From contig CAZQSY010000004.1 in assembly GCA_964596395.1 (NCBI GenBank), positions 9,008 through 73,007 of the forward strand: a stretch of DNA of 64,000 nucleotides, in the 5' to 3' direction. A model generated the notes under the pieces. That model was not told where the DNA came from. It saw only the letters and a list, made by a program, of their open reading frames with translations, and ran no database searches. The position numbers and the translations under genes are program-made. Shown piece after piece: positions 6,745 to 45,301 of this stretch (the first letter of the stretch is position 1; each line of letters starts with the position of its first letter). This stretch comes from an uncultured Candidatus Saccharibacteria bacterium (GTDB lineage: Bacteria; Patescibacteriota; Minisyncoccia; Phycocordibacterales; UBA9973).

Positions 6745-7062
6745 ATGGAATTCGCGGTAATACAAACAGGCGGGAAGCAATACAGGGTATCAAAAGGGGA
6801 TTCTGTCCTCATAGAGAAACTTGCCGGCAAGCACAAAATCGGGGATGAAATCACCTTCGACAAAGTTCTGCTTCGCGATGACGGCAAAAATACCGACATT
6901 GGTACTCCTTATATCAAGGATGCAAAAGTAGGTGCGGAAATTGTACAAATTGGCCGGGCTAGGAAAATTTTGGTTGTAAAATACAAGCAGAAATCCCGCT
7001 ACCTGCGCCGCAACGGCCACCGCCAGCCTTTCTTCAAAGTGAAAATTACTTCGATAAAATAA
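6745..7062 (+). CDS. rplU: 50S ribosomal protein L21
   Basis: MEFAVIQTGGKQYRVSKGDSV... matches the L21 N-terminus. Start moved to the internal ATG at 6745. Confidence 0.85.
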   Translation: MEFAVIQTGGKQYRVSKGDSVLIEKLAGKHKIGDEITFDKVLLRDDGKNTDIGTPYIKDAKVGAEIVQIGRARKILVVKYKQKSRYLRRNGHRQPFFKVKITSIK

Positions 7063-7095
7063 CCCTGTCGCTCGCGAGAGACGGGGTTTACTGCC
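7063..7095. terminator. Bidirectional hairpin terminator between convergent rplU and recR (family D hairpin ccctgtcgctcgcgagagacgggg followed by T-run)
   Basis: Perfect stem ccctgtcgctcg/cgagagacgggg followed by ttt, immediately after the rplU stop. The same hairpin recurs inside tRNA-like pseudogenes at 26213 and 26621. Confidence 0.6.
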
Positions 7096-7710: not shown

Positions 7711-9102
7711 TTAAAAATCATCCAACCCTTCACTTGTTTTCGGCTGGGTAAACTCGCTCAAACTGCTTTTTTCAAGATTGAGGAATGTGGTGGTTTTTTC
7801 GTCGAAGTACAAATCCACTTTGCCGGTCGGGCCGTTGCGGTGCTTTTCAATCAGGATTTCGGCGATATTTGTTTTTTCCGATTCTTCTTTGCCTTTATCT
7901 TCGCGGTGAATGAACATCACCACGTCGGCGTCTTGTTCTATCGAACCCGAATCACGCAGGTCCGAAAGCCGGGGCTTGCCACCGCGCGCTTCCACCGCGC
8001 GAGAGAGCTGAGACAGGGCGAGTACCGGCACGTTAAGCTCTTTGGCCAGCGCTTTGAGAGAGCGCGAAATTTCGGTGACTTGGTTTACCATAGAATCATA
8101 ATTCTTGGTTGTGGTCATGAGCTGTAAATAATCCACGACAACCAAGTCGAGACCCTTTTCGGCTTTCAGTCGGCGGGCCAGCGCTTTCATGCGGACGATT
8201 GTGTTACCCGGCTGGTCGTCGATGAAAATTTTCGCCTTAGCCAGCTTATCCAGCGAGTCCCGCAATTGCGAGAAGTCGCGGTCTGAAGTGAGATGCCCGG
8301 TGCGCAGGTTCCAAGCGTTTACCCGGGACTCGGCCGAGAGCATTCTGTCTACCAGCTGCTGGGAAGACATTTCCAAAGAAAAAATTAGAACCGATTTGTC
8401 GTGTACCGTAGCGGCCATGCGGGCGATATCGAGCGCGAGCGTGGTTTTGCCGATAGAAGGCCGCGCGGCCAATATGATGAGGTCTGATTTCTGCAGACCC
8501 GAGAGGGTATTATCCAGATCCTTAAAGCCGGTAGGCAGGCCCCTGAGCGCGCCTTTGTGTTCATGCAATTTTTCCAGACGTTCCCAGGCCTCGGGCAACG
8601 CCTCTTTCAAGCTGGTGTATTTTTGATTTTTTGGAGAAGACACGACGCCGAAAATTCTTTTTTCAGCCGCGTCTAGCACGTCTTCTATGTGGTCGTCGCT
8701 TTCTTCAAAACTGAGTTCCGAAATATAATCGGCCGCTTCGATTAAGCTACGCAGGATAAATTTCTTCTGCACGATGCCCGCGTAGTGTTTGATGTTTGTC
8801 GAGGAAGGGACAGAGTTTGCGATTTCGGCCAGATATTGGTTGCCGCCGATTCTTTCAAGAACTTTTTGTTCGGAAAGCTTGGTGGAAAGCGAAAGCATGT
8901 CGATTGGCTCGTTTTTGGCCGATAGGTCGAGCATCGCTTTGAAGATTATTTTATTTTTTTCGGCGTAAAAAGAATCCGGTATCAGTATGTCTTCGACTTC
9001 ATGCATCGCGTCTTTGCGGAGCATAATCGAACCCAGCACCGCCTGTTCTGATTCAATATTTTGTGGGGGTATTCTAAGGTCGGTTTTTTTCTGCTTGGCC
9101 AT
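7711..9102 (-). CDS. dnaB: Replicative DNA helicase DnaB
   Basis: DnaB N-terminal domain (ESEQAVLGSIM), Walker A GARPSIGKT and RecA-like C-terminus. No intein. Confidence 0.9.
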   Translation of the reverse strand: MAKQKKTDLRIPPQNIESEQAVLGSIMLRKDAMHEVEDILIPDSFYAEKNKIIFKAMLDLSAKNEPIDMLSLSTKLSEQKVLERIGGNQYLAEIANSVPSSTNIKHYAGIVQKKFILRSLIEAADYISELSFEESDDHIEDVLDAAEKRIFGVVSSPKNQKYTSLKEALPEAWERLEKLHEHKGALRGLPTGFKDLDNTLSGLQKSDLIILAARPSIGKTTLALDIARMAATVHDKSVLIFSLEMSSQQLVDRMLSAESRVNAWNLRTGHLTSDRDFSQLRDSLDKLAKAKIFIDDQPGNTIVRMKALARRLKAEKGLDLVVVDYLQLMTTTKNYDSMVNQVTEISRSLKALAKELNVPVLALSQLSRAVEARGGKPRLSDLRDSGSIEQDADVVMFIHREDKGKEESEKTNIAEILIEKHRNGPTGKVDLYFDEKTTTFLNLEKSSLSEFTQPKTSEGLDDF

Positions 9103-9187
9103 TGAGGAAATTCTAGCAATACCGCTAGGATAGTCAAAGCCCGAAAATGCGTAAGTGTGTTATTAAAATGTGGACAAGCAAAACGGA

Positions 9188-9286
9188 CGAAGCCCCTGCA
9201 AATTCTTCGCTTCCCGAGGGTCCCGCTTTGGGGACCTAAAGCGCACCAAAGAAGGGCGCAGGGACGAAAAATTTGCAGGGGCTTCG
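9188..9286 (+). repeat. Family-A palindromic element (conserved ~62-nt core in the loop of a 16-17 bp hairpin) in the trpS leader
   Basis: Core ttcccgagggtcccgctttggggacctaaagcgcaccaaagaagggcgcagggacg is flanked by gaagcccctgcaaatt / aatttgcaggggcttc. It is ~95% identical (reverse orientation) to 39128..39214 inside dus. Confidence 0.7.
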
Positions 9287-9307
9287 CCTAAAGTGTTAAA
9301 ATTACAC

Positions 9308-10258
9308 ATGCCTAAAAAAGTGCTTTTGTCGGGTGTTCAGCCTTCAGGTAAGCCCCACATTGGGAATTATTTTGGCGCGATGAAACAATTCGTGGATTTG
9401 CAGGACGAATACCAAAGCCATATTTTCATAGCCGATTATCACGCCTTGCATTCGCTTCGGAATCCGAAGGAGATGCACGACAACATTATCGGTGTTTTGC
9501 TTGATTATCTAGCCATCGGTCTTGACCCGGCAAAAGTGACGATTTACAAACAGTCCGATATTTCTGAACACACAGAACTCTGCTGGATTTTCGACACCGT
9601 GATTACCATGCCGTATCTCATGCGCGCGCATGCTTTCAAGGACGCAGAGGCAAAAAATAAAGAGATAGATGTCGGCACTTTTAATTATCCAGTTTTAATG
9701 GCGGCGGATATTTTGCTTTATGGGCCGGACGTGGTTCCCGTCGGTGCAGACCAGAAACAGCATGTTGAAATATGTCGGGATATAGCAGAAAAATTTAATA
9801 ATGTATATGGCGAGACCTTCAAACTGCCCGAGCCGATGATTTTGAAAGAAGTGGCCACGGTGCCGGGTACCGACGGACGCAAAATGTCCAAGAGTTATAA
9901 AAATACGATTCCGCTTTTTGCCGAGTACGAAGAAATCAAAAAATGCGTGATGAGCATTGTCACTGATTCTGAAGAAAGCGTGCCGAAAAATGTCTATGCT
10001 ATACACAAACTTCTTCGCCCCGAAAGTGAACTAAAAGAAATTTATAAAGAAAAGGCAGGGAAGTATAAAGAGCTCAAAGAAATGCTCGTAGAAGATTTAG
10101 AAAAATTCATTGCTCCGCTTCGGGAAAAACGAAAAGAATTTGAAAAAGATATCCCTCGTGCGCTCGCTATTCTAAAAGAGGGCGGTGAAAAGGCAAAAAA
10201 GGTCGCCTCGAAAAAAATGGAAGAAGTACGCGAGAAAGTCGGGGTTTTGGTGTATTGA
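9308..10258 (+). CDS. trpS: Tryptophanyl-tRNA synthetase
   Basis: Class-I motifs PSGKPHIGNY (HIGH-like) and KMSKS. Start set at MPKKVLL (ATG at 9308); the upstream part of the ORF-track ORF is the translated repeat element. Confidence 0.85.
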   Translation: MPKKVLLSGVQPSGKPHIGNYFGAMKQFVDLQDEYQSHIFIADYHALHSLRNPKEMHDNIIGVLLDYLAIGLDPAKVTIYKQSDISEHTELCWIFDTVITMPYLMRAHAFKDAEAKNKEIDVGTFNYPVLMAADILLYGPDVVPVGADQKQHVEICRDIAEKFNNVYGETFKLPEPMILKEVATVPGTDGRKMSKSYKNTIPLFAEYEEIKKCVMSIVTDSEESVPKNVYAIHKLLRPESELKEIYKEKAGKYKELKEMLVEDLEKFIAPLREKRKEFEKDIPRALAILKEGGEKAKKVASKKMEEVREKVGVLVY

Positions 10259-10269
10259 CTTGCCTGAAA

Positions 10270-10490
10270 ATATAGCTGTGTTATTATCAATTTGTAAGCC
10301 GTTGAGCCGGATGACACCGGGGAGGTAAAGAAAGAAAGCCGAAAGGCAAGGCCTTTCGGTAAGTAGAATCTTTCGGGTATGCCCGTTACAGCTGTAGAAA
10401 AGCAAAAAGTAGGGTGGCACCGCGACACAAAAATCGCCCCTGCAAATTTATCAATTTAATGGTAAGTTTGGAGAGGCGATTTTTGTTTTC
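10270..10490 (+). promoter_or_regulatory. T-box riboswitch leader controlling aspS (T-box motif, antiterminator/terminator)
   Basis: Near-consensus T-box sequence aagtAGGGTGGCACCGCGac at 10408-10426. Intrinsic terminator aatcgcc...ggcgatttttgtttt at 10432-10489. Long-range stem I agctgt...acagct. A GAC codon at 10313-10315 is a possible Asp specifier. Confidence 0.75.
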
Positions 10491-10504
10491 TCCAAGAAAA
10501 CACA

Positions 10505-11818
10505 ATGAACAGAATTTTATCTAGGGATGTAAAGAGCCACGCGGGTGAAGAAGTCATGATGCAGGGGTGGCTACACAAGAAGCGCGCCTTGGGCGGCATG
10601 ACTTTCATATTGCTTCGTGATCGAGGCGGCGTGATGCAAATTTTAATAGAAGACAAAGCCGAAGCAGCGAAACTTGATAACTTACAGATCGGCACAGTGC
10701 TCCAAATTACCGGCAAGGTTTTTGAAGAGCCGCGCGCGCCCGAGGGCGTAGAAATCCACGAGCCGAAAATTACCGTTATGCTGCCGGTTACCGACACGTC
10801 GCCGATAGAGCTCGACAAGCCGCTCGGGCATAAGTCGGAAAACCTGGATACGCTTTTTGATTACAGAGTTATCGGGCTCAGGAATTTACGCGAGCAAGCC
10901 GTTTTTAAAATCCAGGCGCAAGTAATGAATGAGGTGCGCGCGTATCTGAAAAGCGAGGATTTTGTTGAGTTTCGTTCTCCGAAACTTTTACCCGGCGCGA
11001 CAGAAGGCGGCGCAGAAGTTTTCAAGCTGGATTATTTCGGCAAAGAAGCGACTCTAGCGCAGAGCGCGCAATTTTACAAACAAATGCTGGTCGGGGTTTA
11101 CGAGAGAGCTTTTGAAATCGGTTCGACTTATCGCGCCGAGCCGTCGGCCACTCCGCGCCACATGACCGAGTTTCAGACCATTGACGTTGAAATGGGTTTT
11201 ATAGAACTGGAGGACCTGCTTCATATGATGAGCGGTTTTATGAATTCAGTAATTGACGGCGTTTGGAAGAATTGCGAAAAGGAACTCAAGATGTGGGAAG
11301 CGGCAAAACCTACTCTGACTAAAGAAATTCCTCAGCTCACTATGGAAGAAATTCACAAGAGGTATTCTGAAGCAAACAAAGAGCAAACAATCGGCGAGAA
11401 AGACCTGCGCCCCGACGAAGAACGATGGATTTGCGAGTATGCAAAGGAAAATTTGGGTAGCGAAGCCGTCTTTGTGGTTGATTGGCCGAGAGAGGGCGCG
11501 AAGTTTTATCATAAGTTCAAAGAAAGTGACCCGAATATCGCCGAACGAGCGGATTTACTTTTCCGCGGAGTAGAAATTGCCACGGGTAGCATGCGCGAGC
11601 ACCGCTATGATGTATTAGTAAAACAGCTTCGTGAAATGGCGGGAGGGAACCCTGATTCTGACGGCTTCAAGTATTTCTTTCAAGCGTTCAAGTACGGGAT
11701 GCCCAGCGAGGGAGGTTTTGGCATGGGTTTGGAGCGGCTTACGCAGAAAATTATCGGCCTGGCTAACGTCAAAGAAGCTGCGCTCTTTCCGCGTGACATG
11801 AATCGCCTTGCCCCGTAA
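10505..11818 (+). CDS. aspS: Aspartyl-tRNA synthetase, class II archaeal/eukaryal-type (likely non-discriminating)
   Basis: 437 aa. N-terminal OB fold, then class-II motifs FRSPKL and GGFGMGLERL. The short archaeal-type architecture is typical of CPR/archaea. Confidence 0.85.
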   Translation: MNRILSRDVKSHAGEEVMMQGWLHKKRALGGMTFILLRDRGGVMQILIEDKAEAAKLDNLQIGTVLQITGKVFEEPRAPEGVEIHEPKITVMLPVTDTSPIELDKPLGHKSENLDTLFDYRVIGLRNLREQAVFKIQAQVMNEVRAYLKSEDFVEFRSPKLLPGATEGGAEVFKLDYFGKEATLAQSAQFYKQMLVGVYERAFEIGSTYRAEPSATPRHMTEFQTIDVEMGFIELEDLLHMMSGFMNSVIDGVWKNCEKELKMWEAAKPTLTKEIPQLTMEEIHKRYSEANKEQTIGEKDLRPDEERWICEYAKENLGSEAVFVVDWPREGAKFYHKFKESDPNIAERADLLFRGVEIATGSMREHRYDVLVKQLREMAGGNPDSDGFKYFFQAFKYGMPSEGGFGMGLERLTQKIIGLANVKEAALFPRDMNRLAP

Positions 11819-13763: not shown

Positions 13764-13800
13764 ATTATAGCAAAATACTTTACTTTAGTCAACTAAAGTA
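13764..13800 (-). promoter_or_regulatory. Consensus sigma70-type promoter (TTGACT-N17-TATAAT on minus strand) with overlapping palindrome, upstream of the yerC-like gene
   Basis: Minus-strand read gives TTGACT (13787-13792), a 17-nt spacer, then TATAAT (13764-13769). Palindrome actttagtTGACtaaagt overlaps the -35. Confidence 0.55.
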
Positions 13801-16379
13801 GATAGATAGGTGTGAATATCCCTTTTGTCTCTCTTCAGCCACAATATATTGCTTTCGAGTTTTTCTATGACTTGCTCTACGGCTCGCTCGGCGCCGGGGG
13901 CGGGATGGGTTCTGAAGAATTTCTTGAATTTGCGCAAGTGCCTTTCTTCGGCGCTTCCGGAAATCGCTTTCATAAATCTGGAGAGCGTGTGTCCGCCTTC
14001 GCCGTACCTCGTGACGAAAGTTTTCCAGTTCCGGGTGATGCATTTGAGCCATGCGTCTCGGCCGAGGGGATTCATTCCGACAGAGGATATTATTCCGGAA
14101 GTATCCTGCGGGCGCACGTGCGAAGACAGCGAAAATTGTGCGGCTTTTCTAAGGATTTCCGGGGAAGAGAAGTTGCCTAAAGCGGCGCCGATCCTGTTTC
14201 TTTCTTCATGCAGCGCTTCTTTTTTGTACATTTTTATAAGCTCTTCATATTCTTTGATTCCGCCGGATTTCGCTACGATGCCGTAAATTGGAGCGCGCAG
14301 GTCCGGGTCAACCCTTTTGCCTTTTTTAATTTTTGCAAAAAGATTTTTGGCTTTTAAAATTGTTTTTTCGTCGCCGGCTTGGCCTAATATTTCTATACAA
14401 AGGGGCCGAAGCATTGAATCAGAAGGGGGTTCGTTTTTTTTCTTACTCCACCCGAGGCGGCGAAAAACAGGGGAGAACAAGCTGATAATTAAACCATCGA
14501 GATTCGCTTCGCTTCCGGTTTTGCAAAAAATTTGCTTGATTCCCCTTATGCCCAGAGCTATCGCGTGCAGGACGGAATAATCACTCTCTCTTTTATACGC
14601 TTTTAAAAATTTCAGAGCTTCGCTCGTTCTTCCGTCGCCAGATTCGGCAAGCGCGAAGAGGTCCCTTATGATTCCCAGGCGGTCCCGCGCGGAGATTTTT
14701 TTATCCCGTACCGGCTTTGCTAATCTGTCGAGCATTTTTTTGGAATAGGCGACTCTGAAAAATCCGCTTTCGCCCGCGTTTATTTTTACAAACTCGGGCT
14801 TGGAGGCCTTGCCTCCAAGCGGAGGCAAGGCCTCCAAGCTCAACTTAGTACTCTGGCTACTAAGCAGTATTTTTGCAGTATTTTTGCCGTCTCCGAAAAC
14901 AATCGGCGTTTGCCAAATTATTTTGTCTTTGTTTTTTCTTTTGGAAATTGGGCTTGAGAAAAATCTGCCCTGCGAAAGATATAAACTTTCACCCTTTATT
15001 TCTGTCTTTATGACCGGGTACCCGGGTTTGGCAGTCCAGTTTTGCATTATTTTTTTTACCGGTTTTCCCGAGATTTTTTCAAATGCTTGCCAGAGGTGCG
15101 CGGTTTCGGTGTTTTTATAGCTATGTTTTTTCAAGTAATAGCGCAGACCGTCTCGAAAATCTTTTTCTCCCAGATATTCGGCCAGCATTCTGATAATACA
15201 GGCGCCTTTTGAATACGATACCTCGTCGAAGATTTCGCCGATTTCGTCGGGGTGATGCACTTTCACTTCTACCGGATGTGTGTTGGCCAATGAATCCAAA
15301 CGGAGTGCTACTCCTAAATCCTGCACCGAAAATTGTGTCCACATATTCCATTCAGGGAAGACCTTTTCCAGCGCCAAATATTCCATATATGAGGCGAATC
15401 CTTCGTTGAGCCACAGGTGTGTCCACCACTCCATAGTCACTAGGTTGCCGAACCACTGGTGGGCAATTTCATGTGCCACGACCAAAGCCACTCTCTGTTT
15501 GTTTGTGAGCGAGGAATTTTTTTCGTCAAAAAGCAGGGCGCTTTCGCGGTAGGTAATGGCGCCCCAGTTTTCCATGGCGCCGGCGGCAAAATCCGGGACA
15601 GCTATCATATCAAGCACGGGCAGGGGGTACTTGATATCAAAATATTTTTCGTAAAAATCCAGCATTTTGGCGGCGCAAGAAAGCGCGAACCCTGCCTGAT
15701 GCTTTTTCTCGGGATGCGTAAAGACGCGCACCGCGACCCCCCGTCTGGTTTTTGTCTGGAGCATATCAAAATCTCCCACAATGAAGGCCAGGAGGTAAGT
15801 GGACATTTTCGGCGTGGGAGAAAATCTTACAATGTCAAAGCCTGCCTCGTGCTCTTTTATTGAAACCGGCAAGGTATTAGAAATCGCCGTTTTGCCTTTT
15901 TCCACCACCAGTGATACCTTGAACACGGCTCTGTGTGCTGGTTCGTCGAAACAAGGGAAAGCCCGGCGCGCGTCGGTGGCTTCGAATTGGGTAGTGGCCA
16001 TGTGGCGTTCTTTGCCGTAAAGCATATACCGGCTGCGATAGAAGCCCCGCATTTTGTCGTTCAGTATGCCTTGAAATATCAACCGTAATTTGGCCGTGCC
16101 AGCTGGTATTTTTTTAGAAAATACAAAAGTCGCGGTTTCCCTTTTTTCGTCGTAAGAAATTTTTTCGGCGAAAAGTTTTTCTGCCAATACCGTGATGCTT
16201 GCCGTCTCAATGTCTATTTCTTTGCTGTGCAGGGTTATCTCCTTTGTCGGCTTCAAGATTTTTATTTTTATCTCCTCTTCGCCTTTGAAGGTGAAGTTCA
16301 GAAGGTCCGGATGCAATTTCAAATCGTACTCCGAGGGGATTATAGACGAGTCAAGTTTTGCGGATTTTTTTTTCTGCAT
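13785..16379 (-). CDS. pepN: Aminopeptidase N (M1 family metallopeptidase)
   Basis: HEIAHQWFGNLVT...WLNEGFA zinc-binding motif and GAMEN-like GAMENWG. Confidence 0.9.
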   Translation of the reverse strand: MQKKKSAKLDSSIIPSEYDLKLHPDLLNFTFKGEEEIKIKILKPTKEITLHSKEIDIETASITVLAEKLFAEKISYDEKRETATFVFSKKIPAGTAKLRLIFQGILNDKMRGFYRSRYMLYGKERHMATTQFEATDARRAFPCFDEPAHRAVFKVSLVVEKGKTAISNTLPVSIKEHEAGFDIVRFSPTPKMSTYLLAFIVGDFDMLQTKTRRGVAVRVFTHPEKKHQAGFALSCAAKMLDFYEKYFDIKYPLPVLDMIAVPDFAAGAMENWGAITYRESALLFDEKNSSLTNKQRVALVVAHEIAHQWFGNLVTMEWWTHLWLNEGFASYMEYLALEKVFPEWNMWTQFSVQDLGVALRLDSLANTHPVEVKVHHPDEIGEIFDEVSYSKGACIIRMLAEYLGEKDFRDGLRYYLKKHSYKNTETAHLWQAFEKISGKPVKKIMQNWTAKPGYPVIKTEIKGESLYLSQGRFFSSPISKRKNKDKIIWQTPIVFGDGKNTAKILLSSQSTKLSLEALPPLGGKASKPEFVKINAGESGFFRVAYSKKMLDRLAKPVRDKKISARDRLGIIRDLFALAESGDGRTSEALKFLKAYKRESDYSVLHAIALGIRGIKQIFCKTGSEANLDGLIISLFSPVFRRLGWSKKKNEPPSDSMLRPLCIEILGQAGDEKTILKAKNLFAKIKKGKRVDPDLRAPIYGIVAKSGGIKEYEELIKMYKKEALHEERNRIGAALGNFSSPEILRKAAQFSLSSHVRPQDTSGIISSVGMNPLGRDAWLKCITRNWKTFVTRYGEGGHTLSRFMKAISGSAEERHLRKFKKFFRTHPAPGAERAVEQVIEKLESNILWLKRDKRDIHTYLSTLVD

Positions 16380-22371: not shown

Positions 22372-23139
22372 ATGAAAATGATCGTTCAAAATTTGGCCAC
22401 GGAATACGAAGATGAGGGGGAGGGAAAAACCTTGCTTTTTTTGCACGGATGGCAAAGCAATCTGCACACTTTCGACCCCTTAGTGAATTCCTTGAGGGAT
22501 TCACTAGAGAAAACGCACAGGTTCGTGCGCCTTGATTTGCCGGGTTTTGGCGGGAGCGAAAGGCCGAGGGAGGATTGGGACTTGGACAAATATGTCTATT
22601 TCGTTTCTGATTTTGTAAAAAAAATGAATCTAGATGTATACGCGCTAGTCGGGCACTCGATGGGCGGACGGATAATTATAAAAGGCGTTTCGGAAAATAT
22701 TTTGAAAACCGAGAAAATAGTGCTAATTTCTTCAGCCGGCATCGCCAAGAGGAAAACTTTCCGCAACCGTTTATTAAAGTTTCTGGCGAAAACCGGCCGG
22801 ATGGTCACGTGCATTCCGCCGTTTTATTTCTGGCGGGAGGGATTGCGCCGAAAAATGTACCAAAAAATCGGAAGTCGAGATTACCTTTCTGCCGGCGCCA
22901 TGCGGGGGACTTTCGTTCGGGTAATAAACGAAGATCTTTCTATAAACGCCCAAAAAGTTAATTCTCCGGCGCTGCTTGTCTGGGGCGAGAATGACACAGA
23001 AACGCCCCTTTCTGATGGAATGCGGCTCTCAAAAATGATTGCCGGTTCGGAGCTTAATGTTTTAAAAGGTTGCGGACATTTCGTGCATGAAGAAAAAGCA
23101 CAAGAGGTGGGAGATATCGTGGAAAAATTCTTATGTTAA
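22372..23139 (+). CDS. Alpha/beta hydrolase fold protein
   Basis: LLFLHGWQSN and nucleophile elbow GHSMGG. -10 TATAAT upstream at ~22353. Confidence 0.75.
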   Translation: MKMIVQNLATEYEDEGEGKTLLFLHGWQSNLHTFDPLVNSLRDSLEKTHRFVRLDLPGFGGSERPREDWDLDKYVYFVSDFVKKMNLDVYALVGHSMGGRIIIKGVSENILKTEKIVLISSAGIAKRKTFRNRLLKFLAKTGRMVTCIPPFYFWREGLRRKMYQKIGSRDYLSAGAMRGTFVRVINEDLSINAQKVNSPALLVWGENDTETPLSDGMRLSKMIAGSELNVLKGCGHFVHEEKAQEVGDIVEKFLC

Positions 23140-24623
23140 AAAATATATTCAACAGATTTATTTCTAAATACAGCTTGCGTTATCCTAGGTCGATAGCGTA
23201 TATGCTGCAGGCGAGCGAATACAAACCGGTTCCGTATCTCAAATGGTGGTTGAGGGTAGAAGATTTTTGCCGGGTGGAAAAAAGAAAGAGTTTGGTAAAA
23301 ACCCAAAATGCGAAAATCTTCCTTTCGTTTTCCTGGCTGATTTACCTCGCTTCGTATGCCGCCATTCTGGGCGTTTTGGTTTTTGCAAATTTCGATTATA
23401 AATACGCCGCCGTGGCGGCCATGGCGCTTCTGGCTCCTTATATTCTAGCTTTCGGAGTTTTGCTTTTGGTTTTTGCCATGAAAATTTTTTATCTGCCCAA
23501 AATGCATTTTTTGATTAAAAAAAGAACTGCGGAGCTTGAAAAACACAAGGGCTTGAAAATCGGCATTGCCGGGAGCTTCGGCAAAACGACTATGCGCGAA
23601 ATATTGAAGACCGTGCTTTCCGCCGGTAAAAAAGTCGCTTCGCCGGAGAAAAATTATAATACGCTGACGGGTATCAGCAATTTCATTAAGACGTTAAAAG
23701 GAGACGAAGAAATTTTAATCTTTGAACTTGGCGAATATTACAAAGGGGACATAAGAGAGATGTGCGAATTTGTGCATCCGCAAATCGGGATAATCACCGG
23801 AGTAAATGAAGCGCACTTGGAGAAATTCAAGAATCTGGATACAACCGCGAGCACGATTTTTGAACTAGCTGATTGGCTTGAGGAAAATAAAAAAAACACA
23901 GGGGAACCCTGTGAAAATTTTACACAGGGTTCCCCTGTGTTGTACATAAACGGCGAAAACGAACCGGCAAAAAGTCGCGCCCAGTCGAAGGATTTTGTCT
24001 ATTCAAGGAGCGGCTTGGATGGTTTGCGGGTTTCGAGCGCACATGCTGGGCTCGAAGGCACCAGTTTTACTCTGGAGTATGAGGGTAAAAATTTTGAGTT
24101 TAATTCAGGACTCCTCGGCTTGCACCAAGTCGGCCCGCTTTGCGCGGCGGTGCATCTGGGTCTATGTCTAGGAATAAAGATAAGTGACCTGCAAAAAGGA
24201 GTGGCCGAAACGAAACCATTCGAGCATCGGTTAGAGCCAAAGACCCTCGCCGGCGGAGTAACGATGCTGGATGACAGCTATAACGGCAACCCTGACGGGG
24301 TTAAGGTGGTGATAGAATTTTTGGCTTCGCTTAAAAGCCGCCGCCGGTTTTACGTTACTCCCGGATTGGTAGAAATGGGACCGAGGACCGAAGAAGTGCA
24401 TAAAGAAATCGGCAGGGAACTCGCGCGAAGCGGAATAGAAAAAATTGTTTTGGTAAAAAACTCGGTTACGCCTTATATTGAAGCAGGTCTGAAAGAAGAG
24501 AATTTCGCGGGCGAAGTGATATGGTTTGAAGACAGCTTAAAAATGCTTTCGGCCTTGCCTCATTTGACCGTTTCGGGTGATATAGTATTATTGCAGAATG
24601 ACTGGCCCGACCAATACTACTAA
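23133..24623 (+). CDS. murF: Mur ligase family protein, likely UDP-MurNAc-tripeptide--D-Ala-D-Ala ligase, with unusual N-terminal TM extension
   Basis: Mur ligase P-loop GIAGSFGKTT, central and C-terminal domains, and the gene sits next to ddl. ~130-aa N-terminal segment with 2-3 TM helices. In-frame family-E palindrome at 23895-23941. Confidence 0.7.
   Translation: MLKNIFNRFISKYSLRYPRSIAYMLQASEYKPVPYLKWWLRVEDFCRVEKRKSLVKTQNAKIFLSFSWLIYLASYAAILGVLVFANFDYKYAAVAAMALLAPYILAFGVLLLVFAMKIFYLPKMHFLIKKRTAELEKHKGLKIGIAGSFGKTTMREILKTVLSAGKKVASPEKNYNTLTGISNFIKTLKGDEEILIFELGEYYKGDIREMCEFVHPQIGIITGVNEAHLEKFKNLDTTASTIFELADWLEENKKNTGEPCENFTQGSPVLYINGENEPAKSRAQSKDFVYSRSGLDGLRVSSAHAGLEGTSFTLEYEGKNFEFNSGLLGLHQVGPLCAAVHLGLCLGIKISDLQKGVAETKPFEHRLEPKTLAGGVTMLDDSYNGNPDGVKVVIEFLASLKSRRRFYVTPGLVEMGPRTEEVHKEIGRELARSGIEKIVLVKNSVTPYIEAGLKEENFAGEVIWFEDSLKMLSALPHLTVSGDIVLLQNDWPDQYY
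23895..23941. repeat. Family-E nested palindrome (aacacaggggaaccctgtg-aaaatttt-acacagggttcccctgtgtt) in frame inside murF
   Basis: Nearly perfect ~23-bp inverted arms. A sibling copy (arms acacagggtagtcctgtg) is intergenic at 3791-3834. Here it encodes NTGEPCENFTQGSPVL. Confidence 0.7.
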
Positions 24624-25994: not shown

Positions 25995-26177
25995 CCTGTT
26001 TCTTTTGCCTCTTTTTTGTGCTATATATAAAGCGCAGCCGAGACCGGTTGCGGGTTCTTTTAGTTCGGAATTTCTTTGCTTAAGTGGAAATTCCGTCAGG
26101 CGCGATTTCTTTTTCGTTTTTGCGCCTGTATGTTTCCGCCCGCGTTTTGATACCGGTTTAAAGTGTGGGCGGAGCAT

Positions 26178-26276
26178 GGGCCTATTGTTCTGTGGTAGAA
26201 TAGCGGTCTCCACCCCGTCGCTCGCGAGCGACAGGGTCCAAGACCGTTGCCGGAAGTTCGATTCCTCCACGGCCCA
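26178..26276 (+). pseudogene. Degenerate tRNA-Trp-like sequence with a 24-nt hairpin inserted in the anticodon loop, directly abutting the GIY-YIG ORF start
   Basis: D-arm gttc/tgtggta/gaat, anticodon stem gcggt + loop ctcca(hairpin ccccgtcgctcgcgagcgacaggg)..accgt, T-arm ggaag-TTCGATT-cctcc. Acceptor pairs only 5/7. Ends 2 nt before the ATG at 26279. Confidence 0.5.
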
Positions 26277-26278
26277 CA

Positions 26279-26538
26279 TGTTTTATGTTTACGTTTTGAA
26301 GAGTAAGAAAGACAATAAGCTGTATTTCGGGTATACTGCTGACCTGAAAAAACGTTTATCTGAACACAAGAGAGGGAACGTAGAAAATACTAGCCATAGA
26401 TTGCCCGTTGAGCTTGTTTATTACGAATCTTATAGAAATATAGATGATGCGAAGGAGCGGGAAAAGAGTTTCAAAAATAGCGGTTCTGTGTATAATGGAT
26501 TGGTAAAAAGAATTAAGAGAAGTATGATGGGAGCTTAG
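26279..26538 (+). CDS. Small GIY-YIG nuclease (COG2827/UPF0213-type URI-domain protein)
   Basis: MFYVYVLKS...KLYFGYTADLKKRLSEHKRG matches the GIY-YIG core. Paralogous to 44802..45059. The TAG stop lies inside the 5' end of tRNA-Trp. Confidence 0.75.
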
Positions 26539-26602
26539 TTAAGTGGTATAACTGCGGTCTCCAAAACCGCGGTCAAGGGTCCGATTCCCTTAGCTCCCGC
26601 CA
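26529..26602 (+). tRNA. tRNA-Trp (anticodon CCA), CCA encoded
   Basis: Acceptor gggagct/agctccc, D-arm gtta-agtggta-taac, anticodon stem gcggt/accgc with loop cTCCAaa, T-arm aaggg/ccctt, discriminator g then cca. Overlaps the last 10 nt of the GIY-YIG ORF. Confidence 0.8.
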
Positions 26603-26690
26603 GAGACATTTAGGTCTCCACCCCGTCGTTCGCGAACGACGGGGTCCAAAACCGCGGTCAAGGGTCCGATTCCCTCATCGCCCGCTAGAT
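26603..26690 (+). pseudogene. Partial duplicate of the tRNA-Trp 3' portion carrying the same anticodon-loop hairpin
   Basis: aggtctcca + hairpin ccccgtcgttcgcgaacgacgggg + tccaaaaccgcggtcaagggtccgattccct... matches the tRNA-Trp 3' half with altered acceptor. No 5' half present. Confidence 0.5.
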
Positions 26691-37519: not shown

Positions 37520-38392
37520 ATGAAAAGCAAGACAGTATCGACATCGCCGCGTTTTCAAAAGTTTAAAAAACAGAAACACAAGACCTTGCGGCGCAAAATC
37601 TTTCTTTGGTTTTTTGCCGTTTCTTTGTTTTTTTTAGGGCTGACTTTTCTTTCAAGGATAGAGAAGATAAATATCGGGACGGTAGAAATCACCGGCAACA
37701 AGGTCTTAGAAAGCGGGGCCATTGAAGAAGTCGTCAGGGATAAGATCGCCGGCTATTATTTGTGGTTTTTCCCGAAGGCGAATTTTTTGCTTTATCCCGA
37801 CGAAAAAATAGCCGCAGAGCTGGCTGAAAGGTTTAAAAGATTAGAATCCATCAGTTTGAATTTGAAAGATTTCAAGACCCTCGAGGTTTACGTTACGGAA
37901 AGAATTCCGGTTTATATGTGGTGCGGCGAGTCGCTGGCTTCCGCAAAAGAAAAATGTTATTTCATGGATGAAATCGGATATATTTTTGACGAAGCGCCGT
38001 ATTTCTCGGGAGAAGTTTATTTCAAATTTTACGGCAAACTTTCAGCCGAAAGCGAAAGCCCGCTCGGCCTTTATTTCGCGCCGGAAAATTTTGCCCGGCT
38101 TGCGTCTTTCAAGAAACTGGTTGAGAAGATGGGACTGAAGCCCGCTGTTTTTTATCTCGACGAAAAAGGCGATGCGCGCATGTATCTTCCTTCGTTTGCC
38201 GGGCCGGTGCTTGAGAGGAAAACGGGGCCGGAAATAATTTTCAATATTGAAGACGATTTGAGCAAGGTGGCAGAAAACCTGCAGTCAATTCTCTCGACTG
38301 AACCCCTACAGACGGATTTCAAGAAAAAATATTCTTCGCTCTTATATATAGATTTGCGTTTTGGGAATAAAGTGTATTATAAATTCCGTTAA
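37520..38392 (+). CDS. Membrane-anchored protein, possibly FtsQ-like (POTRA-type) cell division protein
   Basis: Basic N-terminus and a single TM, then a beta-rich ~230-aa domain resembling FtsQ/DivIB. Weak assignment. Confidence 0.35.
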   Translation: MKSKTVSTSPRFQKFKKQKHKTLRRKIFLWFFAVSLFFLGLTFLSRIEKINIGTVEITGNKVLESGAIEEVVRDKIAGYYLWFFPKANFLLYPDEKIAAELAERFKRLESISLNLKDFKTLEVYVTERIPVYMWCGESLASAKEKCYFMDEIGYIFDEAPYFSGEVYFKFYGKLSAESESPLGLYFAPENFARLASFKKLVEKMGLKPAVFYLDEKGDARMYLPSFAGPVLERKTGPEIIFNIEDDLSKVAENLQSILSTEPLQTDFKKKYSSLLYIDLRFGNKVYYKFR

Positions 38393-39435
38393 TGCGGAAT
38401 TTCTGGATAAAATTAAATAGACCTTTTTTCTGCCTGGCGCCGATGGCCGATGTTACTGATTGCGCTTTCAGAAAGGTTATAGCCAATTATGGCAAACCGG
38501 ATGTGTTCTGGACGGAATTTGTTTCAGCTGATGGCTTGGCACACCCGAAGGCCAGAGGAAAGCTTTTGATTGACTTAAAATTTTCCAAAGACGAGCACCC
38601 GATAGTGGCGCAGATATTTGGTGCTAACCCTGAAAACATCAAGGAAGCTGCCGTCTTGTGCCGAGAGCTCGGCTTTGACGGGGTAGATATAAACATGGGT
38701 TGCCCCGACCGAACGATTGAAAAACAAGGCGCCGGAGCGGCCATGATTAAAAACCCAAAACTCGCGCGCGAAATTATACGAGCAGCCAAAGAAGGGGCAG
38801 AGGGTTTGCCCGTGTCGGTGAAGACGCGCATTGGCTACAGCAAGGTTGAGATTGAAACCTGGCTGCCGGAAATATTGAAAGGAAATTTGGCGGCGCTTAC
38901 GATTCACTTGAGGACCAGGAAAGAAATGTCTGATGTACCGGCGCATTGGGAACTTATGAAAAGAATCGTTGAGATTCGCGATGAAATTAGCCCGGAAACT
39001 TTACTTATTGGCAACGGCGATGTGGTGAGTTTAGAAGATGCAAGAGCAAAAACCAAAGAGTATGGCTGTGATGGAGTAATGCTAGGCAGAGCCATTTTCG
39101 GAAATCCGTGGCTGTTCAGAAACCTCACCAGTACTGTTTTTTCGTCCCTGCGCCCTCCTTCGGTGCGCTTCAGGTCCCCAAAGCGGGACCCTCGGGAACA
39201 AAAAAACAGCACTGGCGAGGTTTCTTTAAAGGAAAAGCTGAAGGTTTTGATAGAACACACGAAACTTTTTGAAAAAGAGTTCAAGGGTATAAAAAGTTTT
39301 GACGTTATGAAGAAGCATTACAAAGCATACGTGAACGGTTTCGATGGCGCGAAGGAGCTTCGCATAAAACTCATGGAAACCAAAAACGTCAGAGACGTTG
39401 AAAAAATAGTGAAGGATTTTCTGGAAAAGATGTGA
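38392..39435 (+). CDS. dus: tRNA-dihydrouridine synthase with an in-frame palindromic-element insertion
   Basis: CLAPMADVTD, FMN-binding TIM-barrel motifs, GNPWLF. Residues STVFSSLRPPSVRFRSPKRDPREQKNSTGEVS are encoded by the family-A element at 39128-39214. Confidence 0.85.
   Translation: MRNFWIKLNRPFFCLAPMADVTDCAFRKVIANYGKPDVFWTEFVSADGLAHPKARGKLLIDLKFSKDEHPIVAQIFGANPENIKEAAVLCRELGFDGVDINMGCPDRTIEKQGAGAAMIKNPKLAREIIRAAKEGAEGLPVSVKTRIGYSKVEIETWLPEILKGNLAALTIHLRTRKEMSDVPAHWELMKRIVEIRDEISPETLLIGNGDVVSLEDARAKTKEYGCDGVMLGRAIFGNPWLFRNLTSTVFSSLRPPSVRFRSPKRDPREQKNSTGEVSLKEKLKVLIEHTKLFEKEFKGIKSFDVMKKHYKAYVNGFDGAKELRIKLMETKNVRDVEKIVKDFLEKM
39128..39214 (-). repeat. Family-A palindromic element copy inside dus (reverse orientation, read through in frame)
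   Basis: The reverse complement matches the trpS-leader core at ~95%. It is flanked by its own inverted arms cagtactgttttttt / aaaaaacagcactg, which differ from the trpS-copy arms but stay complementary. Confidence 0.7.
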
Positions 39436-42667: not shown

Positions 42668-42679
42668 AAAGCAACCTTC

Positions 42680-42758
42680 GCGGCAGCATGCTTTTGCTCG
42701 GGTCCTCGGGTCGCCCTGCTGGGCTCAACCAGACCAGCTCGCAAAAGTATGCTGCCGC
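42680..42758. repeat. Family-B palindromic element (18-bp terminal inverted repeats gcggcagcatgcttttgc / gcaaaagtatgctgccgc), intergenic copy
   Basis: Fills most of the tsaCE-tsaD spacer. A second copy at 42995-43091 shares both termini and inner blocks tcgggtcctcgggtcg and ctcaaccagaccagctcg. Confidence 0.75.
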
Positions 42759-42770
42759 TTCGGCTTAAAC

Positions 42771-43970
42771 ATGAAAAAGATTTACACGTTAGGCATAGAT
42801 ACTTCCTGCGACGACACTTCGGTGGCGGTTTTAGAGAACGACAAGGTACTCGCGAATGTGGTTTCTTCGCAAATTGACGTGCATAAAGAATGGGGCGGGG
42901 TGGTGCCGAACCTAGCGCGCCGGGAACACGAGAGATTAATTGGCGGGTGTATTGAGCTCGCTCTAAAGCGCGCGGGTTTTTTGCAATCGCCTCTGCGGCT
43001 GCATGCTTTTGCTCGGGTCCTCGGGTCGGCCGCACATGAAGTTTTGAATGGTGCGGCCTCAACCAGACCAGCTCGCAAAAGCATGCTGCCGTTTCGGCTA
43101 GGAAGTACGCCTGCGACGAGTTTCGGTGTGTTAGTTAAAAAATTAGACGCCATAGCAGTGACGCATGGCCCGGGGCTCGCACCTGCGCTTGAAGTGGGCG
43201 TGGCCTGGGCAAAAAGAATCGCCTTGGAAAATAATTTGCTTCTTATTGCCGTGAATCATATGGAAGGCCACACGCTTTCGGTATTTTTGAAAAATAAAAA
43301 CGGGAAAAATTATTCGGGGCTGAAGCAGGCAAAGTTTCCTTTTCTCGCGCTGAACGTTTCGGGTGGGCATACAGAACTCGCGTGGGTAGAGAGGTTGGGA
43401 GAATATAAAATTCTGGGGCAGACGCTGGATGACGCTGCCGGCGAATGCTTTGACAAGGTGGCGCGGATGCTTGATTTGGGATACCCGGGCGGGGAGCTGA
43501 TTTCTAAATTCGCTGAAGGCGCTAACCGGGATAAATATCCTCTGCCTCGGCCGATGCTCTGGAGCAAAGATTATAATTTTAGTTTTTCCGGCCTCAAGAC
43601 CGCTTGCCTGTATAATACGAACAAATTGAAAGAAAAACTCGGCAAAGATTTCGCCAAAATTATTCCCGATTACTGCGCTTCCGTGCAGGAAGCGATTGTT
43701 GACTGCCTAGTCATAAAAACCGCCAAAGCTGTAAAAGAATTCAAGCCGAAAATGCTCGTCTTGGGCGGGGGAGTCGCCGCGAACTCGCGCCTGCGCGCGA
43801 GAATCCGCAAAGAGGCGAAAAATTTGGGTGTACCGGTGTATTTTCCCGATAAGAAATTTACTTCCGACAACGCGGCCATGATAGCGCTCGCCGGCTATCA
43901 CAAATTTCTCCGTGGAGAATTCTCCGACCCGAAAAGATTAGAGCGCGTGCCGTCACTTAGATTGGGGTAG
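42771..43970 (+). CDS. tsaD: tRNA N6-adenosine threonylcarbamoyltransferase TsaD (Kae1/Gcp) with in-frame palindromic-element insertion
   Basis: GIDTSCDDTSVAV, HMEGH and GGVAAN motifs. There are ~45 extra residues (LQSPLRLHAFARVLGSAAHEVLNGAASTRPARKSMLPFRLGSTPATSF) between the first helix and GPGL, where homologs have about 8. Confidence 0.85.
   Translation: MKKIYTLGIDTSCDDTSVAVLENDKVLANVVSSQIDVHKEWGGVVPNLARREHERLIGGCIELALKRAGFLQSPLRLHAFARVLGSAAHEVLNGAASTRPARKSMLPFRLGSTPATSFGVLVKKLDAIAVTHGPGLAPALEVGVAWAKRIALENNLLLIAVNHMEGHTLSVFLKNKNGKNYSGLKQAKFPFLALNVSGGHTELAWVERLGEYKILGQTLDDAAGECFDKVARMLDLGYPGGELISKFAEGANRDKYPLPRPMLWSKDYNFSFSGLKTACLYNTNKLKEKLGKDFAKIIPDYCASVQEAIVDCLVIKTAKAVKEFKPKMLVLGGGVAANSRLRARIRKEAKNLGVPVYFPDKKFTSDNAAMIALAGYHKFLRGEFSDPKRLERVPSLRLG
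42995..43091 (+). repeat. Family-B palindromic element copy inserted in frame within tsaD
   Basis: Termini gcggctgcatgcttttgc ... gcaaaagcatgctgccg are retained. The interior differs from the intergenic copy by a ~14-nt indel. Confidence 0.75.
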
Positions 43971-44664: not shown

Positions 44665-44715
44665 GATTTTAATTGTATCAAATTTGTGCTATATTTTCTC
44701 TGTGTTTTGTGGTAT

Positions 44716-44790
44716 TGGGAGATCGCCTGCCTGCGCAGGCAGGTCTAACGGTAGTCACCTCATCGGCGACCCGCCGAAAAGGCGGGGACA
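44716..44790 (+). pseudogene. tRNA 5' fragment (acceptor 5' strand + D-arm) interrupted by a family-C palindrome and followed by a 36-nt double-hairpin element
   Basis: tgggagatcg[cctgcctgcgcaggcagg]tctaacggtag parallels the tRNA-Gln start tgggagatcgtctaatggtag. It is followed by tcacctcatcggcgacccgccgaaaaggcggggaca, which is repeated at 45178-45213. Confidence 0.5.
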
Positions 44791-44801
44791 AAGATTAATC
44801 C

Positions 44802-45059
44802 ATGTATTATACTTACATATTACAAAGTTTAAAAAACGAACGAATGTATGTTGGAAGTACAGATGATTTAAAAAGAAGAGTTTCTGAGCACAATTCAGGT
44901 ATAGGTGGCTTGTATACCAAAAACAATCGACCCTTTAAGTTAATATACTACGAAGCGTACATTGAGAAAAAAGACGCAAGTCGGGCAGAAAAGTTTTACA
45001 AAACAGGATACGGTAGAGAAGTTTTGAATGGTAAATTAGAGGATTATTTGAAAAAATGA
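44802..45059 (+). CDS. Small GIY-YIG nuclease (COG2827/UPF0213-type URI-domain protein)
   Basis: MYYTYILQSLKNERMYVGSTDDLKRRVSEHN matches the GIY-YIG core. Paralog of 26279..26538. Ends 17 nt before tRNA-Gln. Confidence 0.75.
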   Translation: MYYTYILQSLKNERMYVGSTDDLKRRVSEHNSGIGGLYTKNNRPFKLIYYEAYIEKKDASRAEKFYKTGYGREVLNGKLEDYLKK

Positions 45060-45075: not shown

Positions 45076-45146
45076 TGGGAGATCGTCTAATGGTAGGACT
45101 CCTCCCTTTGAAGGAGGCTATCTTGGTTCGAATCCAAGTCTCCCAG
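45076..45146 (+). tRNA. tRNA-Gln (anticodon TTG) embedded in a 14-bp perfect extension of the acceptor helix
   Basis: Acceptor tgggaga/tctccca, D-arm gtct-aatggta-ggac, anticodon stem cctcc/ggagg with loop cTTTGaa, T-arm cttgg-TTCGAAT-ccaag. Flanks ttcgcgagcagtgc (45062-75) and gcactgctcgcgaa (45146-59) are exact reverse complements. Confidence 0.8.
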
Positions 45147-45173
45147 CACTGCTCGCGAATTAAAAATTTTTAA

Positions 45174-45262
45174 GTGGTAGTCGCCTCATCGGCGACCCGC
45201 CGAAAAGGCGGGGACAGTGGCCTTTGAAGCCATTAATTTTGGTTCGAATCCAAATCTCCCAG
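45174..45262 (+). pseudogene. tRNA 3' fragment (D-loop remnant + 36-nt element + anticodon arm TTG + T-arm + acceptor 3' strand)
   Basis: gtggtag + tcgcctcatcggcgacccgccgaaaaggcggggaca + gtggc-cTTTGaa-gccat + tttgg-TTCGAAT-ccaaa + tctccca g. The 5' acceptor strand and D-stem are absent here but present in the 44716-44790 fragment. Confidence 0.5.
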
Positions 45263-45301
45263 CCCTGGGAGTAAGTCGCGGGAAAATGAAATATTTTTTA
45301 T

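Follow-up and report, generated by a model that had tools for sequence, protein, structure and literature searches.

A previously undescribed family of in-frame palindromic elements with an invariant centre and variable paired arms in Paceibacteria

Introduction

The element described here is a hairpin-forming repeat that occurs twice in a 64,000-nucleotide stretch of DNA (hereafter, the window) from an assembly deposited as an uncultured Candidatus Saccharibacteria bacterium (GenBank GCA_964596395.1, contig CAZQSY010000004.1, positions 9,008 to 73,007 of the forward strand). One copy lies inside the gene for tRNA-dihydrouridine synthase (dus), and the other (the trpS-side copy) between the divergent genes dnaB and trpS, both assigned by Pfam. 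The names carried by the homologues of Dus place the source organism among the Patescibacteria of the Paceibacteria/Nomurabacteria type. An initial annotation, made from the letters of the window, had described the dus copy as an in-frame palindromic insertion related to the copy upstream of trpS, and had offered two explanations for the unlike stems that enclose them: either the element inserts into the loops of pre-existing hairpins, or its closing stem is under structural selection, as in a structured RNA. We followed both copies into other genomes, where they proved to belong to a widespread family.

Results

Two related hairpin elements in the window

Comparison of the window with itself confirmed the relationship between the two copies. 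Their 61-nt cores (9211-9271 on the plus strand and 39138-39198 on the minus strand) are 95% identical in inverted orientation, as the initial annotation had reported, and the open reading frame (ORF) of dus is intact. The cores differ at three positions, all of them A/G exchanges that fall on unpaired positions of the predicted fold. A 27-nt core probe matched exactly two places in the window, with 0 expected by chance, and a covariance model applied to the window recovered only these two copies (81 and 68 bits); the next match, of 27 bits, was the reverse strand of the first copy. The G+C content of the core is far above that of the window (44%).

Inverted repeats enclose both cores, as had been noted, at lengths greater than the 14-17 bp originally given: the closing arms form 17 perfect base pairs in the trpS-side copy and 20 bp with two 1x1 mismatches in the dus copy. 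The arms of one copy are 55% identical to those of the other. Folding placed the two internal hairpins that had been proposed for the core, GGUCCC..GGGACC and GCGC.CC..GGGCGC, in the predicted structure of the window copies. The whole trpS-side unit folds at -66.9 kcal/mol (z = -8.1) and the whole dus unit, on the plus strand, at -51.9 kcal/mol (z = -7.4); in each case none of 200 shuffled sequences folded as well. With 42-nt flanks included, the dus unit reaches -76.5 kcal/mol on the minus strand versus -59.5 on the plus strand. In both copies one flanking pentamer has given way to a sequence complementary to the other (CGAAG...CTTCG at trpS, CCTCG...TGAGG in dus), which indicates that the palindrome has grown outward. 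The coordinates of these features are collected in Table 1.

The trpS-side element ends about 20 nt before the ATG of trpS (9308). Since this gap is too small for a promoter, the element is probably located in the 5' untranslated region of trpS; a promoter scan of 9000-9400 returned only a minus-strand site, for dnaB. A T-box leader for trpS was considered and rejected, given that the sole T-box match (10293-10444) precedes the next aminoacyl-tRNA synthetase gene. That leader (10293-10486), upstream of a class II synthetase gene at 10505-11818, scored 47.6 bits (E = 6e-9; the Rfam cut-off is 93). The 5' arm of its terminator contains GCCCCTGCAAATT (10436-10448); at a distance of 1.2 kb, each arm of the trpS-side element is made of the same 13-mer, for which chance would give about 0.1 matches when up to one mismatch is allowed.

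Table 1. Features of the two window copies and host genes of the family (L numbers denote loci in other genomes; positions are those of the window)
Feature	Positions	Strand	Basis and remarks
Host gene, tRNA-dihydrouridine synthase (dus)	38392..39435	+	PF01207; ORF intact through the element
Net insertion in Dus, about 29 codons (STVFSSLRPPSVRFRSPKRDPREQKNSTG)	39131..39217	+	Protein alignment, solved Dus 1vhn and DNA of uninserted orthologues; ends placed to the nearest few codons
dus hairpin unit	39121..39222	-	Fold; the better-folding strand (CCCGAGGG first) is the minus strand of the window, antisense to dus
dus copy, covariance model match	39110-39231	-	68.3 bits, E = 5e-13
dus core, junction to junction, CCCGAGGGTCCC...GGGCGCAGGG	39146..39196	-	Pattern match; long variant with two apical hairpins; 95% identical to 9213-9263
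dus closing-stem arm AACCTCACCAGTACTGTTTTTT	39121..39142	.	Outermost 6-9 bp exceed the 14-bp stem of the family; compared with L001 and L002
dus closing-stem arm AAAAAACAGCACTGGCGAGGTT	39201..39222	.	Complementary to 39121-39142
trpS-side hairpin unit	9185..9289	+	Fold; between divergent dnaB and trpS
trpS-side copy, covariance model match	9177-9299	+	81.4 bits, E = 4e-16
trpS-side core, junction to junction	9213..9263	+	Probe and pattern match
trpS-side closing-stem arm CGAAGCCCCTGCAAATT	9188..9204	.	Perfect pairing with 9270-9286
trpS-side closing-stem arm AATTTGCAGGGGCTTCG	9270..9286	.	Pairs with 9188-9204
Host gene, UvrD/PcrA helicase			Pfam; two sites; L025 has two copies in one gene
Host gene, UvrC			Pfam; two sites
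Host genes, LeuRS, MnmA, PolA			Pfam
Host genes, RsmA, Tgt, Pgk, Fmt			Recognised by motif

A dispersed family with an invariant junction

One genome per species was scanned with the pattern CCCGAGGGTCCC-N15-45-GCGCAGGGAC, which fixed 22 junction bases. The 47 stretches returned comprise about 40 true copies and six chance matches in GC-rich genomes. In total, the family has at least 46 copies in about 35 Paceibacteria/Nomurabacteria genomes, so that it is not restricted to the two copies of the window. The true copies were found in metagenome-assembled genomes (MAGs) of the Nomurabacteria/Paceibacterota/Patescibacteria type, some labelled Saccharibacteria, with the exception of the contig JAMPXW010000001.1 (277 kb, labelled Burkholderiales), which contributes two copies (L016 and L048). 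Both of these sit inside Paceibacteria-like genes, for PcrA and UvrC, and either the label or the contig is probably wrong, through mis-binning or as a chimera.

The unit is about 75-95 nt long, and its parts follow the same order in every true copy: a variable arm, ATTTTGAGCTT-CCCGAGGGTCCC, a variable apical hairpin, GAAGGGCGCAGGGACGAAAAAT, and the complementary arm. The junction is asymmetric, GC-rich and nearly invariant, with TTTTGAGCTT-CCCGAGGGTCCC on the 5' side and GAAGGGCGCAGGGACGAAAA on the 3' side. The apical hairpin exists in variants such as ACCCCTGTAATCAGGGG, ACTCGGTACTCCGAG and ACTCCGAAGGAG, and a long variant, such as that of the window, contains two hairpins. The closing stem has at least 14 bp; it stops at 14 bp in 17 copies and extends to as much as 31 bp in others. 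A conserved direct repeat flanks the 14-bp stem immediately on its outer side, as GCGAAG to the left and CGAAGC to the right. When all copies were folded, every one adopted the same structure, and the covariance model recovered all of them at 55-117 bits.

A metagenome scan with a 22-mer specific to the window returned only an unrelated hairpin in GC-rich contigs, and the viral contigs scanned contained no copies of the family. At the gathering threshold, Rfam 15 matched nothing in the window except tRNAs; permissive Rfam scans of three loci and of 9050-10550 assigned no family to the element and gave miRNA-like or generic hairpin noise. A resemblance to HDV-like or twister ribozymes (GGUCCC...GGGAC) was considered and found no support, as no such model matched in the Rfam scans.

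Most copies reside in frame within genes

Roughly 33 of the 46 copies (about 70%) lie inside long ORFs, with hundreds of codons on either side, in at least 10 different genes; the other 13 copies are intergenic. Within genes, the copies are found at linkers or loops, many of them at the same site in different genomes, and the ORFs stay open. The strand that reads CCCGAGGG first is antisense to the host in 28 of the 33 in-gene copies and sense in five. The antisense copies encode ...SSNFSSLRPS..YRGGTLGKLKIERS... or ...FSSLRPS..WDPREQK..., and the five sense copies ...FELPEGPTPVLGGRAQGRK.... On the Kyte-Doolittle scale these are the two most hydrophilic of the six frames (-1.1 and -0.9). A further frame, though often open, is hydrophobic (+0.23) and is never used in genes.

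The length of the element also depends on its location. The stem-to-stem distance is 1 mod 3 in 30 of 35 in-gene copies versus 5 of 13 intergenic copies; in the former, stem-to-stem + 5 = 3n holds in the same 30 of 35. This bias points to a filter that preserves the reading frame, and hence to an element that is translated and not spliced out. The predicted product of the in-gene copies is a loop of about 27-31 residues, and from the in-gene length rule we infer that one flanking pentamer belongs to the net insertion.

The contexts of the intergenic copies are mixed. Some lie 10-25 nt from the start codons of opposite-strand genes, others between co-directional genes, and others between convergent genes with U-runs on both sides. 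A small-RNA gene with its own promoter was considered and rejected, since no promoter or terminator context is common to the intergenic copies; the promoter-like 'TATAGCACAA' strings turned out to be sequences beside the start codons of opposite-strand genes. Genes for DNA repair and replication recur often among the hosts and neighbours (UvrC and PcrA/UvrD, with two sites each, PolA, a LexA-like gene downstream of a copy, and the adjoining dnaB), and this frequency may reflect just the gene length and the small gene set of these genomes.

The insertion in Dus and its empty sites

An alignment with 23 orthologues defined the boundaries of the insertion in Dus to within a few codons and revealed 29 extra codons (at about 39131-39217) in the linker beyond the GNPWLF motif. 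The initial annotation was right about the insert and slightly wrong about its position, which is not directly after the motif: it starts 4-8 residues past it. According to the alignment with the solved Dus 1vhn, the linker connects the TIM barrel and the C-terminal helical domain, so that in Dus, the one host examined structurally, the insert occupies a permissive or surface position. Baseline orthologues of 315-325 amino acids have no insert; in many others this very position holds an insert of 25-60 residues, and these inserts are of several unrelated kinds.

At the DNA level, the close relatives L001 and L002 have the same core in the same orientation in dus, enclosed by arms that differ and are again self-complementary. 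Three uninserted Dus genes have a linker of 8-11 codons with no hairpin (-7 to -9 kcal/mol, versus -30 to -68 kcal/mol with an insert), and CGRAG-like strings are present at two of these three empty sites. One of the three uninserted genes belongs to the genome CAYHBT, in which a copy of the family is present elsewhere (L004). The insert is not ancestral to Dus. At Dus, the family is represented by copies of either orientation, whose positions lie only a few nucleotides apart.

Pairing is kept while the arm sequences change

We evaluated covariation in an alignment of 36 short-variant copies, using RNAalifold and pair counts compared with 500 shuffles and with slid controls. RNAalifold returned one long irregular hairpin. 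Standard pairs occupied 96.4% of the cells versus 85.9% in the shuffles, and double changes were counted in 104 cells versus 27.6 +/- 4.3; none of the 500 shuffles reached 104, and the slid controls did not exceed 37. Covariation was detected in 12 of the 16 closing-stem pairs and in the three apical pairs (3/3), and the junction helix showed no variation.

A similar pattern was observed among copies that occupy the same site in different genomes. In these comparisons, 166 stem positions had changed on both sides with pairing kept, and a further 66 had changed on one side by way of a wobble; against this, 120 position comparisons had lost pairing in one copy, some of them beyond the 14-bp stem. 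L013 and L059, for instance, have their outer arms in common; in the inner stem, C:G pairs of one stand as T:A in the other, and T:A pairs as C:G. The suggestion of structural selection on the closing stem thus holds to the extent that the stem is conserved as structure and not as sequence (covariation in 36-48 copies); its second half, that this happens as in a structured RNA, was not established.

A moderate strand bias

The CCCGAGGG-first strand folds better in 44 of the 46 copies, partly due to the fixed junction. A strand-symmetric count in the closing stem gave 51 G.T-type versus 8 A.C-type mismatches on that strand, and 29 versus 8 when one inherited consensus wobble was left out. A wobble asymmetry of 80 versus 5 was rejected as overstated, being inflated by the folding method and by the same inherited wobble. 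The strand bias is real but moderate. It is alike in sense and antisense copies and is therefore tied to the element and not to the transcription of the host, and it would be compatible with an intermediate that is single-stranded and of one polarity, be it DNA or RNA.

Origin of the arms and probable exchange of the cores

The arms of copies in unrelated genes share the consensus CTTCTTTCAATTTT/AAAATTGGAAGAAG as well as the flanking pentamer, which indicates that the arms arrived with the element. The stems of the two window copies, described at first as completely different, are so within the window, whereas across the family their arms trace to this common consensus. In dus, the arms are graded away from it, from L002 (TCTTCCAATTTT) through L001 (AGTGAAAACTTTT) to the window (AGTACTGTTTTTT), and the partner arm follows each step. 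Arms at the same site in different genomes are 81% identical, and all other pairs 67-70%; within same-site groups, the arms are 38-88% identical and the host flanks 50-82%. We also considered that one arm might be an inverted copy of the host flank made at insertion, an idea that appealed for the dus copy of the window. It was rejected as a general rule on two grounds: the host linker is preserved on either side in L002 and L001, and the arms in unrelated genes have a consensus in common.

Junction positions outside those fixed by the search pattern are 63-100% identical within same-site groups. In the Dus copies that were found by protein search (L001, L002, L058 and L059) the junction is essentially intact, the deviations being an internal deletion in L002 and one change at the 3' end in each of L058 and L059; the concern about ascertainment bias is thereby reduced, not removed.

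The apical part groups by site (63% versus a background of 54%), and sometimes by genome instead. The clearest grouping within a genome is that of the window pair, with cores 92-95% identical and arms 55%. In the MAG MFTY, the apical parts of L020 and L021 are 100% identical and their arms 62%, and L033 and L046 of DAHVYC have an unusual apical variant in common. The best explanation is that a copy elsewhere in the same genome occasionally overwrites a resident core, by gene conversion or by re-insertion between the invariant junctions, which would supply the homology. Such overwriting would account for cores that are 95% identical in dus and beside trpS within arms that are unrelated.

Other hairpin families at the same hot spots

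The same hot spots carry other hairpin families, in which a site-specific closing stem surrounds a family-specific core; at least four further families were distinguished at Dus, UvrC and PcrA, with one such hairpin at about 2920-3030 of L009. A close sister family has the core ..GTGGGTCCCCTG..CCGAGGGCG.. (L035:3449-3561, L014:5818-5926 and L019:3679-3789). Another, the 'GRSGDDGQRKF' family, was identified in UvrC from the folded DNA, in PcrA by its peptide (L025) and in the Dus insert of L057. The Dus linker houses at least two further families (L055 and L056), and in L025 and L026 a hairpin of another family directly adjoins a copy of the one described here. The hot spots could result from permissive linkers, from a preferred, CGRAG-like target motif or from inversion between the arms.

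Other palindromes in the window

Besides the two copies of the family, the window contains a palindrome with 17-bp perfect arms at 14787-14850, in the ORF 13785-16379 (minus strand), and one with 19-bp perfect arms at 23895-23941, in the ORF 23133-24623. A two-copy hairpin family of about 100 nt, with the stem GCGGCAGCATGCTTTTGC, is located at 42675-42770 and 42990-43100, the second copy being in frame in the ORF 42771-43970. These further GC-rich palindromes in or beside ORFs indicate that in-frame palindromes are common in this genome.

In a tRNA-Trp(CCA)-like gene (26173-26279), the anticodon loop holds a 28-nt insert with TCCA on either side, made up of a 24-nt near-perfect palindrome (CCCCGTCGCTCGCGAGCGACAGGG) followed by the TCCA repeat. 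An ORF for a small GIY-YIG nuclease (26278-26538) follows this gene, and then an intact tRNA-Trp (26529-26602). The same palindrome is borne by a 3' tRNA half at 26609-26690, and a third copy of it, of 26 nt, lies at 7062-7087. The region resembles a mobile GIY-YIG cassette with tRNA genes as its targets, one that supplies a replacement tRNA. The layout recurs at tRNA-Gln, where a 5' tRNA-like piece with GC-rich hairpins (44715-44795) is followed by a GIY-YIG ORF (44802-45059), an intact tRNA-Gln (45076-45147), and a hairpin with a 3' tRNA half (45176-45270).

Discussion

A full-text literature search returned no description of such elements in Patescibacteria or in the candidate phyla radiation (CPR). 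The family is previously undescribed, and it consists of in-frame palindromic elements similar to the Rickettsia palindromic elements (RPEs), with an unusual architecture and outside Rickettsia. We consider it probable that each copy is an RPE-like, non-autonomous hairpin element, predicted to be translated, whose arms are kept paired by selection or by arm-to-arm conversion and whose core is occasionally homogenised within a genome. The family is a dispersed hairpin-forming repeat of Paceibacteria (Patescibacteria/CPR), of which just the in-frame, hydrophilic and loop-located insertions would survive, to be inherited afterwards along with the host gene. The arms would diverge as fast as the flanking coding DNA, or faster, while staying complementary, and their pairing could be kept either by selection on the formation of a single-strand hairpin or by intrastrand template switching, in which one arm serves as the model for its partner. 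That the palindrome has grown outward in both window copies speaks for some arm copying, and the wobble bias speaks for some selection on the hairpin. As for the mobilising enzyme, our leading guess is a single-strand mechanism that would recognise the hairpin.

Several observations weigh against this proposal. The copy number is low, with two copies in the window and five pattern matches in one MAG. Neither a transposase nor any other partner enzyme was recognised in the 8-kb loci examined, and no search aimed at Y1/HUH transposases was made. The arms are not conserved in sequence, unlike the terminal inverted repeats of a MITE (miniature inverted-repeat transposable element) of the DDE type. 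The flanking pentamers match at 3.22 of 5 positions within a copy versus 3.15 of 5 between copies (p = 0.33), so no copy-specific target-site duplication is seen; the pentamer repeat is a family consensus. The strand bias is weaker in the outer stem (15 versus 6 beyond position 9), and many wobbles are shared by descent. Finally, the junction is nearly invariant across genomes whose Dus proteins are about 70% identical, more than a decaying selfish element should show, which hints at ongoing activity or at a function for the host; the estimates of conservation are partly biased by a search pattern that required 22 junction bases.

The comparison with known systems helps to place the family. 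RPEs are dispersed hairpin repeats of 100-150 bp that are found in intergenic and coding DNA, insert in frame and are retained across species (PMC1779305; PMC10969869). Our elements share with them the form of short dispersed hairpin repeats in a lineage of reduced genomes and host-dependent life, the presence both between genes and, unusually often, in frame in unrelated housekeeping genes to which they add a peptide, and the retention at orthologous sites. They differ in that the hosts are Patescibacteria and not Alphaproteobacteria, with no true copies in Rickettsiales; the likeness drawn here is one of form and distribution. The unit is also shorter (about 75-95 nt versus 100-150 bp), the centre is invariant while the arms vary and covary, and several core families occupy the same sites in both orientations. 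By this analogy, the element appears to work like an RPE and not to be a member of the RPE group.

MITEs inside genes (ERIC/RU, the Coxiella QMITE, BOX) are small non-autonomous elements with inverted-repeat ends that form in-frame fusions with host ORFs (PMC10969869, PMC5896051, PMC2759123), and in these respects our elements are like them. The terminal repeats of MITEs are conserved and match a parent insertion sequence, and their target duplications are specific to each copy; in the present family the arms are free, with a loose consensus, and no parent insertion sequence was seen. The element therefore lacks one defining feature of a classical MITE, conserved terminal repeats, and appears to lack another, copy-specific duplications.

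A third group is formed by repetitive extragenic palindromic (REP) elements, with REPIN-RAYT, and other single-strand hairpin systems (PMC3733652, PMC3116915). REPs are extragenic and 20-40 nt long, whereas the copies described here are mostly intragenic. In IS200/IS605 elements such as IS608, transposition proceeds by single-strand 'peel and paste', and the ends carry two separate hairpins. The likeness to these systems, which recognise the shape of a hairpin within a single DNA strand and have no classical terminal repeats, lies in a centre that does not vary between arms that are free yet paired, in the moderate strand bias, in the pentamer conserved at the foot of the hairpin and in the lack of conservation in terminal repeats; this resemblance to single-strand HUH systems may serve as a lead and not as a test. 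In the attC sites of integrons the structure is conserved, the sequence is variable and one strand is active, which recalls the present family; our copies lack attC R/L boxes and any integrase context. The GC clusters and double-hairpin elements of mitochondria are likewise GC-rich palindromes, in AT-rich genomes, that sometimes lie in frame in genes, and their hosts are organelles. Neither these nor attC sites have the junction sequence of the family.

Of the alternatives, the first goes beyond our proposal in assuming an active, strand-specific hairpin system of CPR bacteria in place of decaying junk DNA. The invariant junction would be the recognition site of a putative single-strand enzyme (HUH-type 'peel and paste', a structure-specific nuclease or a recombinase) that re-seeds or converts copies in essential genes, and arm copying would keep and extend the palindromes. 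We hold this to be a minority possibility. If it were true, the architecture would be the opposite of that of a MITE, a conserved centre with free arms, maintained for a long time inside housekeeping coding sequence.

We regard as unlikely that the element is a functional, strand-specific structured RNA or single-stranded DNA under purifying selection, for example a site of binding or processing by a protein of the host or of the element, an antisense RNA or a DNA-structure signal, whose presence in genes would be tolerated and not accidental. Consistent with such a function, conservation at orthologous sites is higher in the junction than in the coding DNA around it, and the junction is essentially intact in copies found without the pattern search. 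Both helices that adjoin the junction covary strongly, the wobble asymmetry (51 versus 8) favours one strand, and the hairpin could affect expression at those intergenic copies that lie 10-25 nt from start codons or between convergent genes. Yet nothing in Rfam matches, and promoters, terminators and orientation are all inconsistent among copies. Of the 33 in-gene copies, 28 have their better-folding strand antisense to the mRNA of the host; the sites are spread across unrelated genes, and close relatives lack them. Arm-to-arm copying can keep pairing without any function, and the conservation estimates carry the bias of the search pattern.

The first explanation of the initial annotation, that a small mobile core inserts into the loops of pre-existing hairpins and that the stems are host sequence such as terminators or older palindromes, seems improbable. 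It would account for near-identical cores with unrelated arms, as in the window and in L020/L021, for sites such as the Dus linker and two UvrC sites that hold, in different genomes, different hairpin families and both orientations, and for the 13-mer that the trpS-side arm has in common with the arm of the neighbouring T-box terminator. At Dus, insertion into a pre-existing host hairpin is ruled out by the uninserted orthologues, whose linkers of 8-11 codons have no hairpin and no room for one. Elsewhere, the arms of copies in unrelated genes share CTTCTTTCAATTTT/AAAATTGGAAGAAG and the flanking pentamer, and the dus arms move away from that consensus step by step; they derive from the family and not from the host. 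A weaker form of the idea survives, in which resident copies can swap cores and retain their own arms.

Removal at the RNA level in the manner of an intron, with excision by a structure-specific nuclease and ligation that would leave the proteins unaltered, is very improbable: the closing stem does bring the two junctions together, and the window also has the tRNA-Trp-like gene with a small palindrome in its anticodon loop, but one length rule preserves the frame in 30 of 35 in-gene copies and holds in 5 of 13 intergenic ones, the absence of stop codons and the use of only the most hydrophilic frames would be irrelevant to an excised sequence, both orientations occur in genes, and no ribozyme or intron model matched. 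An insert of 27-31 residues is also far too short for an intein.

Returning to the reading that we prefer, a translated RPE-like element, its significance lies in the fact that in-frame palindromic 'selfish DNA' in housekeeping proteins has hitherto been treated as near-unique to Rickettsia. The same phenomenon in Paceibacteria would show that it recurs in bacteria with small genomes that depend on a host, and would account for part of the puzzling protein inserts in CPR genomes. In practical terms, these inserts inflate or confuse protein alignments and gene calls in CPR MAGs. With its invariant centre, free paired arms and homogenised cores, the family would offer a clean natural system in which to study how hairpins persist in DNA, by selection or by template switching, and a good place to seek a new hairpin-recognising mobilisation enzyme.

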